Virus record (IMG/VR): IMGVR_UViG_2534681933_000011
Reading direction: 5' to 3' (one strand)
Length of the DNA stretch: 23,972 bases
Source: a virus
Taxonomy: Duplodnaviria; Heunggongvirae; Uroviricota; Caudoviricetes
How positions within the stretch are numbered: position 1 is the stretch's first letter; each line of letters starts with the position of its first letter. A program made the translations under genes and the position numbers. The notes below the pieces were generated by a model that had not been told where the DNA came from, searched no databases, and worked only from the letters and a program-made list of their open reading frames with translations. Of this stretch, positions 1 to 650 are shown piece after piece.

Positions 1-186
1 TTCGTTTACAACGTGGGCGCTGGCAATTTCAGAACATCGACGCTTCTTCGCAAAATAAACCAGGGCGATATCAAAGGCGCATGTGATCAGCTACGGCGCT
101 GGACATACGCTGGCGGTAAGCAATGGAAAGGGCTGATGACTCGCCGCGAGATTGAGCGTGAAGTCTGTTTGTGGGGGCAACAATGA
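1..186 (+). CDS. Phage lysozyme/endolysin, C-terminal fragment (gene starts left of the window)
   Basis: Frame-1 translation ...[61 protein letters not shown] resembles the C-terminus of P21 R / RrrD-type (T4-lysozyme-like) phage lysozymes as I recall them; its stop overlaps the Rz start in an ATGA arrangement. Confidence 0.7.
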
Positions 187-650
187 GCAGGGTAACCGTT
201 ATTATCACCGCTCTGGTTATCTGCATTATCGCCTGCCTGTCATGAGCTGTTAATCATTACCGCGATAACGCCATTACCTACAAAGCGCAACGCGATAAAA
301 AAGCCAGTGAGCTGAAGCTGGCGAACGTGACAATTACTGATATGCAGGTACGCCAGCGTGATGTCGCTGCACTTGATGCCAGATACTCGAGGGAATTAGC
401 CGATGCGAGAGCTGAAAATGAAACTCTGCGTGCTGATGTTGCCGCTGGTCGTAAGCGCCTGCGCATCAACGCCAACTGTCCAGGCTCCTTGCGTAAAGCC
501 CCCATCACCTCCGGCGTGGGTAATGCAACCGGTCCCCGACTGGCAGAAGCCGCTGAACGGGATTATTTCATCCTCAGAGAACGGCTGATGGCAATGCAGA
601 AGCAACTGGAAGGAGCACAGGAATATATCCGTACCCAGTGTATACCGTGA
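183..650 (+). pseudogene. Rz: Rz i-spanin homolog interrupted by an in-frame TGA at codon 21 (about 243-245)
   Basis: From the ATG at 183 the frame reads [42 protein letters not shown]..., collinear with lambda Rz, where the stop position is Trp. The ORF track lists only the downstream part (327..650) in the same frame, confirming a stop between 183 and 327. Confidence 0.6.
403..588 (+). CDS. Rz1: Rz1 o-spanin lipoprotein, embedded in the +1 frame of Rz
   Basis: 61 aa [61 protein letters not shown]: signal peptide with lipobox-like VSAC, proline-rich mature part, fully nested in Rz as in lambda. Confidence 0.75.

Follow-up and report, generated by a model that had tools for sequence, protein, structure and literature searches.

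In phage lambda, Rz, the inner-membrane half of the spanin that breaks the outer membrane, has a type II topology and is anchored by residues 1-24, its transmembrane domain (TMD); an artificial TMD can take the place of this anchor, and lambda Rz-amber lysogens are complemented by plasmid-borne Rz (PMC5295617). In E. coli O157 Sakai, all eleven lambdoid prophages keep their lysis genes and complement each other's defects, and the prophage Sp9 was scored as defective for repressor, recombination, portal and head functions, with its lysis functions intact and with other prophages complementing it (PMC2669165). Rz nonsense alleles, their phenotype and the piecemeal decay of prophages in the EHEC lineage are already well described, and the locus reported here is nothing new in kind.

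The DNA analysed (the window, 23,972 nucleotides) is the entire contig AIFS01000021.1 of the draft genome GCA_000249535.2, from the E. coli O55:H7 strain DEC5C, and it carries an already damaged lambda-like (lambdoid) prophage. The contig has 99.6% identity with the corresponding prophage of O55:H7 CB9615 and 99.7% with the one in RM12579. The CB9615 counterpart continues into nleH1-2, nleF, an espO remnant, an ompW fragment, yciE and trpA. This position and this cargo are, as we take them, those of the Sakai prophage Sp9, and the CB9615 element is presumably the equivalent of Sp9.

An earlier note, made from the letters of the window alone, had claimed that the Rz i-spanin frame is interrupted by an in-frame stop at codon 21, where lambda has Trp, as would result from a change of TGG to TGA. 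The translation of the frame confirms the TGA at codon 21 (Table 1), and the alignment shows that the W21 column, conserved from lambda to the nearest relatives, is occupied by Trp in lambda Rz and in the Rz of O55:H7 RM12579, O55:H7 CB9615 and O157:H7 FRIK944. Within codon 21, base 245 is the sole difference from the relatives, a G to A change; the comparison with intact Rz genes of related prophages that had been proposed as a check gave TGG in all of them, including every relative read directly. After the TGA, the Rz frame resumes with AVNHYRDN and stays open to the normal stop, and the downstream part, which had been said to be intact, is indeed open and identical to the intact allele. Over its full length the DEC5C Rz shares 153 of 155 codons with the intact allele WP_000092321.1, the two differences being S9T and W21stop. 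When W21 is repaired, the translation of 155 residues matches the family PF03245 (Phage_lysis, E=1.9e-46) over residues 29-153, that is profile positions 1-125 of 126, and the 107-aa ORF at 327-650 also carries PF03245. The repaired protein is 75% identical to lambda Rz, and both cysteine columns (lambda C99 and C152, engaged in intermolecular disulfides) are invariant in the alignment of the two. The gene follows directly after the endolysin gene with an ATGA overlap (183-186), and the order in the relatives is holin, lysozyme, lysis protein. On its sequence, the DEC5C Rz is a pseudogene of the Rz family, in which the anchor would no longer be joined to the periplasmic domain.

Recoding at the stop was considered and rejected: no slippery or RF2-like shift site lies near TCA TGA GCT, and a private allele holds no conserved recoding signal. 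The ATG at 242-244, which overlaps the stop, opens a frame of 3 codons only. Rfam, promoter and terminator scans returned nothing relevant near Rz.

Table 1. Coordinates of the lysis-gene features, of the differences private to the window outside the gpJ patch, and of the other lesions of the DEC5C prophage.
Feature	Position	Strand	Remarks
Endolysin (lysozyme RrrD type), C-terminal 61 codons	1..186	+	PF00959, E=5.9e-20, profile 74-125 of 125
Rz frame	183..650	+	ATG at 183, normal TGA stop at 648-650 (translation)
Rz start, 20 anchor codons and premature TGA	183..245	+	translation; alignment with lambda Rz
Private substitution	207	+	A, T in the relatives; Ser9 to Thr in the Rz anchor
Lesion: TGA at codon 21	243..245	+	TGG (Trp21) in the relatives; base 245 is A, G elsewhere
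Private substitution	245	+	the base of the lesion above; A, G in the relatives; Trp21 to stop in Rz
Rz remainder: periplasmic coiled-coil domain, codons 22-155 and stop	246..650	+	open; identical to the intact allele of RM12579/CB9615
Gene of the o-spanin Rz1, an outer-membrane lipoprotein, 61 aa, intact	403..588	+	nested in the +1 frame of Rz; PF06085, E=1.1e-18
HNH endonuclease with 10-bp deletion between 2091 and 2092	1777..2307	+	frameshift; 176 aa vs 121 aa
IS3-family element (ISEc31-like), 1,258 bp	4655..5912	+	10 bp past the large-terminase stop, 56 bp before the capsid gene
Private run-length difference	12177		T6 vs T7, intergenic spacer
Same IS, second copy, truncated where the contig ends	23109..23972	-	downstream of gpJ; common to CB9615, RM12579 and DEC5E
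Private difference	23528		inside an IS copy

The position of the stop relative to the membrane anchor determines what could still be made from the gene. The single hydrophobic stretch of Rz covers residues 4-22 (Kyte-Doolittle 19-residue mean of 2.63), so that the stop lies inside the N-terminal transmembrane segment, as had been proposed. Beyond residue 22, the best 19-residue mean is 0.22, and the earliest in-frame codons past the stop at which translation could begin again are GTG 327 and ATG 342. Since there is no hydrophobic segment past the stop, a restarted Rz product could not be membrane-anchored, in agreement with the claim that any re-initiated product would lack its anchor, and the products of GTG 327 or ATG 342 would be soluble and cytoplasmic. 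The same evidence bears on the idea, raised beforehand as one that would overturn the reading of a lesion, that the gene naturally starts past the TGA and still encodes an anchored, working i-spanin. Gene callers do annotate a 107-aa ORF from GTG 327 (EHV40714.1), and an ATG is present at 342, but the hydropathy from residue 22 onward is far below that of a membrane segment and every relative uses the ATG at 183 that overlaps the endolysin stop. Furthermore, residue 29 is where the match to the Pfam Rz domain sets in, and the products of both restarts would be without its first 20 residues. Hydropathy rules out that the gene starts naturally past the TGA with an anchor of its own, and the probability of such a start is negligible. 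EHV40714.1, annotated in DEC5C as a 107-aa 'bacteriophage lysis family protein', is properly the tail end of an Rz pseudogene.

The genes on both sides of the lesion had been described as intact. For the nested Rz1 this is borne out by an open frame with a match to its Pfam family: Rz1 is 70% identical to lambda Rz1, its lipobox LVVSAC has a Cys20 aligned to the Cys20 of lambda, and the proline-rich stretch PPSPPAW is kept. A Shine-Dalgarno-like motif, GAGGGA, is found at 389-394, 8 nt upstream of the Rz1 start, and the exact Rz1 protein is found on at least 999 contigs. Rz1 should be made but without a cognate partner. For the flanking lysozyme the statement holds for the last 61 codons, which are the only ones present; the contig starts inside the gene and the rest falls outside the window. 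The TGA stop of this gene (184-186) overlaps the Rz ATG (183-185), and the relatives' annotation is 'lysozyme RrrD'. On the other side, a long AT-rich spacer (651-1114) precedes a gene for a PerC-family regulator (1115-1429, PF06069, E=3.8e-44), located where lambda has bor and belonging to the PerC homologues that EHEC prophages carry.

To situate the allele among sequenced strains, the neighbourhoods of both Rz substitutions were searched as 65-mers. The 65-mer centred on codon 21 had 0 exact matches in 5,426 complete E. coli genomes, against 416 records at 95-99% identity (1-3 mismatches), and among the 40 matches listed all had a single-base difference. For the 65-mer with the variant base 207, there was no exact match in the complete E. 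coli genomes and hundreds of records at 95-99% identity, with a one-base difference in each of the matches listed. All the IMG/VR contigs examined with this Rz segment (40/40) carry T at base 207 and G at base 245, and the scan of the GTDB representative genomes with a degenerate pattern returned no match of any kind. At the protein level, among about 15 billion proteins, the truncated 107-aa product occurs on 1 contig, the source contig itself, and the intact S9/W21 protein on 831; the T9/W21 intermediate is absent from this collection. The Rz stop is private to the DEC5C contig. Since both Rz changes were seen nowhere else searched, the lesion is to be regarded as private and young. The claim that it is recent is supported by these data, the stop being found in one assembly and the rest of the gene matching the common intact allele apart from S9T.

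Two other public contigs of the same Rz allele group carry damage of their own. In L006 (~770-780), Rz has a separate lesion, the AAAAAA run at codons 39-40 having lost 2 bp, and in L005 (~2860-2900) a hybrid Rz allele is found, in which a different type of N-terminus is joined with a +2 frameshift. As these lesions are independent, Rz decay is recurrent and ordinary in resident prophages.

The quality of the contig was evaluated from its differences with the O55:H7 relatives. Over the first 4,654 bases, the window and CB9615 differ at 3 sites, one of which (666) is a change of CB9615 itself. Outside a divergent patch in gpJ, 4 differences are private to the window in about 22.7 kb when CB9615, RM12579 and DEC5E are considered together (Table 1). 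The patch itself (20528-21542) accounts for about 32 window-private differences, including small compensating indels at 21365-21381, and a gpJ segment of 1.1 kb is 100% identical to the gpJ of an unrelated pig isolate, NJS001, which identifies it as a recombinant tail-tip allele. At the start of the capsid/protease fusion gene (6110-6256), 21 differences from CB9615 are gathered within 150 bp; they are not window-private since none differs from all three relatives, and they look like the trace of a short recombined stretch in CB9615 or like polymorphism that is shared. The T-run at 12171-12183, after the gp17 stop, has one base fewer than in the three O55:H7 complete genomes, a T6/T7 difference that may reflect either true slippage or a miscounted homopolymer in the draft sequence.

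These data have to be set against the possibility that a faulty base call or assembly produced the TGA, the true DEC5C sequence being TGG and Rz being intact. The site lies 245 bp from the 5' end of a 2012-era draft contig, and the allele rests on one contig. This contig end is located inside a lysozyme gene that is shared by several prophages, the 65-mer being found in 2 places each in CB9615 and RM12579. The private substitutions at 207 and 245 are only 38 bp apart; by our estimate chance would bring 2 of 4 private sites this near to each other in about 2% of cases, which hints at a local artefact or at a single multi-base event, and the homopolymer difference at 12177 is of a type typical for draft sequencing errors. 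However, the contig is otherwise very clean, 4,652 of its first 4,654 bases matching RM12579 or CB9615, the 3-bp target duplication around its private IS insertion is correct, and its private gpJ patch is a natural allele that is found without a mismatch in an unrelated strain. Moreover, a mixture of paralogous Rz reads cannot yield A at 245, every intact copy having TGG, and the change is a substitution, not an error in homopolymer length. An independent assembly of DEC5C was sought through the private gpJ protein, and this search returned the same contig alone. We consider an error of the draft unlikely, while giving it real weight, and we favor a real, neutral and recent decay mutation in Rz, with a probability of about 0.7.

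A stop codon that is real does not necessarily abolish the protein. UGA is the leaky stop codon of E. coli. In a K-12 reporter, the competition between Trp-tRNA and RF2 at UGA leads to a readthrough of about 2% at 37 °C, against 4% at 25 °C (PMC10570021). Among nonsense mutations, only a TGG to TGA change has a natural readthrough product that regains the original residue; for this reason the allele should not be assumed to be null without a test, and insertion of Trp at UGA21 would soften the defect. RF2 is more active in strains other than K-12, and the termination strength of a UGA followed by G is intermediate. Readthrough in DEC5C is therefore probably lower.

Two further hypotheses would give the stop a function: (i) the stop is real and selected, the reduction or loss of the i-spanin, with a trickle produced by UGA to Trp readthrough, attenuating lysis to the benefit of the host; and (ii) UGA21 is leaky and gives a few percent of full-length Rz with its Trp21 (in which S9T stays), a low-dose spanin that would be condition-dependent because readthrough varies with temperature and cAMP, and that was perhaps kept for a delayed or softer rupture of the outer membrane. 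The first is in line with a readthrough product that would carry the original Trp and with the location of both private changes within the 72-bp segment that codes for the anchor. In contrast, the allele is a singleton that has not spread in any lineage, the opposite of what a selected variant would do, and holin and endolysin alone still kill the cell, which leaves little gain for the host from the loss of Rz. The other Rz lesions differ in kind and in site, as random decay predicts, and S9T is conservative and falls in a segment for which an artificial TMD can substitute (PMC5295617). We regard the selection hypothesis as highly improbable and the retained leaky spanin as slightly more improbable still. 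Help from elsewhere in the chromosome may also be considered: the O55:H7 relatives have a second, near-identical copy of the Rz segment (the 65-mer occurs in 2 places per genome), and co-resident prophages may be able to supply spanins in trans, softening the Rz defect.

The neutral decay that we favor would not be isolated, since the prophage is decaying and defective in several other places: a frameshift in the HNH gene, an IS between terL and the capsid gene, and an IS after gpJ. The view of a defective or decaying prophage, which had been derived from the Rz stop, is thus upheld by the 10-bp HNH deletion and by the two IS insertions. In the HNH endonuclease, whose gene adjoins the terminase, the core residues 49-92 are kept and the C-terminus is swapped for about 70 unrelated residues. 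The deletion is common to all the O55:H7 relatives, the gene being annotated as a pseudogene in CB9615, RM12579 and DEC5E, whereas it is intact at 121 aa in FRIK944 and O26 FWSEC0001. The IS that follows the terminase is flanked by a 3-bp target duplication, CAC, and neither of its junctions is present in any complete E. coli genome. In CB9615, an identical IS lies 158 bp downstream, inside the capsid gene, with the duplication TGG (L003 16812-18069), and RM12579 and DEC5E are without either of these IS of the terminase/capsid region. These are two independent IS insertions within 160 bp in the sister strains DEC5C and CB9615.

Two annotations of this prophage deserve a comment. A full-length Rfam match to isrC (RF01387, 150 bits) at 4723-4845 is located inside the transposase orfA region, and this putative sRNA is consequently part of the IS element. 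In the relatives, even in O26:H11, the ORFs 8118-9482 and 9479-10702 are annotated as a single 'frameshifted' portal gene. The first encodes a whole portal domain and shares 4 bp with its neighbour. For the second (407 aa), Pfam gave no solid match, and direct repeats with an offset of 162 bp occur within it (about 9695-10236). The two ORFs are probably genuine genes, not a lesion, in an arrangement that may be normal for this phage group, and were not counted as damage.

The following scenario can be proposed for the effect of the mutation. A single G to A transition at 245 would have turned Trp21 of Rz into UGA, translation would halt after 20 residues of the anchor, and the periplasmic coiled-coil domain, which pairs with Rz1, would not be made in a membrane-anchored form. 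Rz1 would still be encoded, without a partner from the same prophage. [quoted passage not shown] This lysis phenotype is extrapolated from that of lambda Rz nonsense mutants. The mutation would represent neutral and recent decay, and the prophage, kept as a damaged resident element and not as an infective phage, appears to be retained in this state in the chromosome. The locus is a further example of how the lambdoid prophages of O55:H7 and O157:H7 shed phage functions piecemeal, and its significance beyond annotation is very little.

Compared with the lambda Rz/Rz1 spanin, the DEC5C locus keeps the overlap of the endolysin stop with the Rz start and the nesting of Rz1 in the +1 frame; outside the lesion, Rz retains its C-terminal Cys and the Cys aligned with C99, and W21 is conserved in the related alleles. 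It differs by an Rz broken at codon 21, so that no anchored i-spanin is encoded, by a PerC homologue downstream in place of bor, and by packaging and head genes of HNH/terminase, HK97-like type. With the lambda Rz nonsense mutants, the DEC5C allele shares a premature Rz stop and an intact Rz1, and those alleles are lysis-defective; however, the published ones are situated in the periplasmic domain and none is reported in the TMD (PMC5295617). The lambda lysogens used for the lysis assays carry an Rz amber (PMC5295617), whereas the stop in DEC5C is UGA, occurs naturally and replaces a Trp codon. The intact allele WP_000092321.1, found in O55:H7, O26 and related EHEC prophages, is present in the same prophage context in CB9615, RM12579, DEC5E and O26 FWSEC0001. 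Finally, as in the defective, effector-carrying lambdoid prophages of Sakai, for example Sp9 (PMC2669165), multiple inactivating lesions are combined with maintenance in the chromosome; in contrast to the full sets of lysis genes reported for the Sakai lambdoid prophages (PMC2669165), the DEC5C prophage has one lysis gene damaged.
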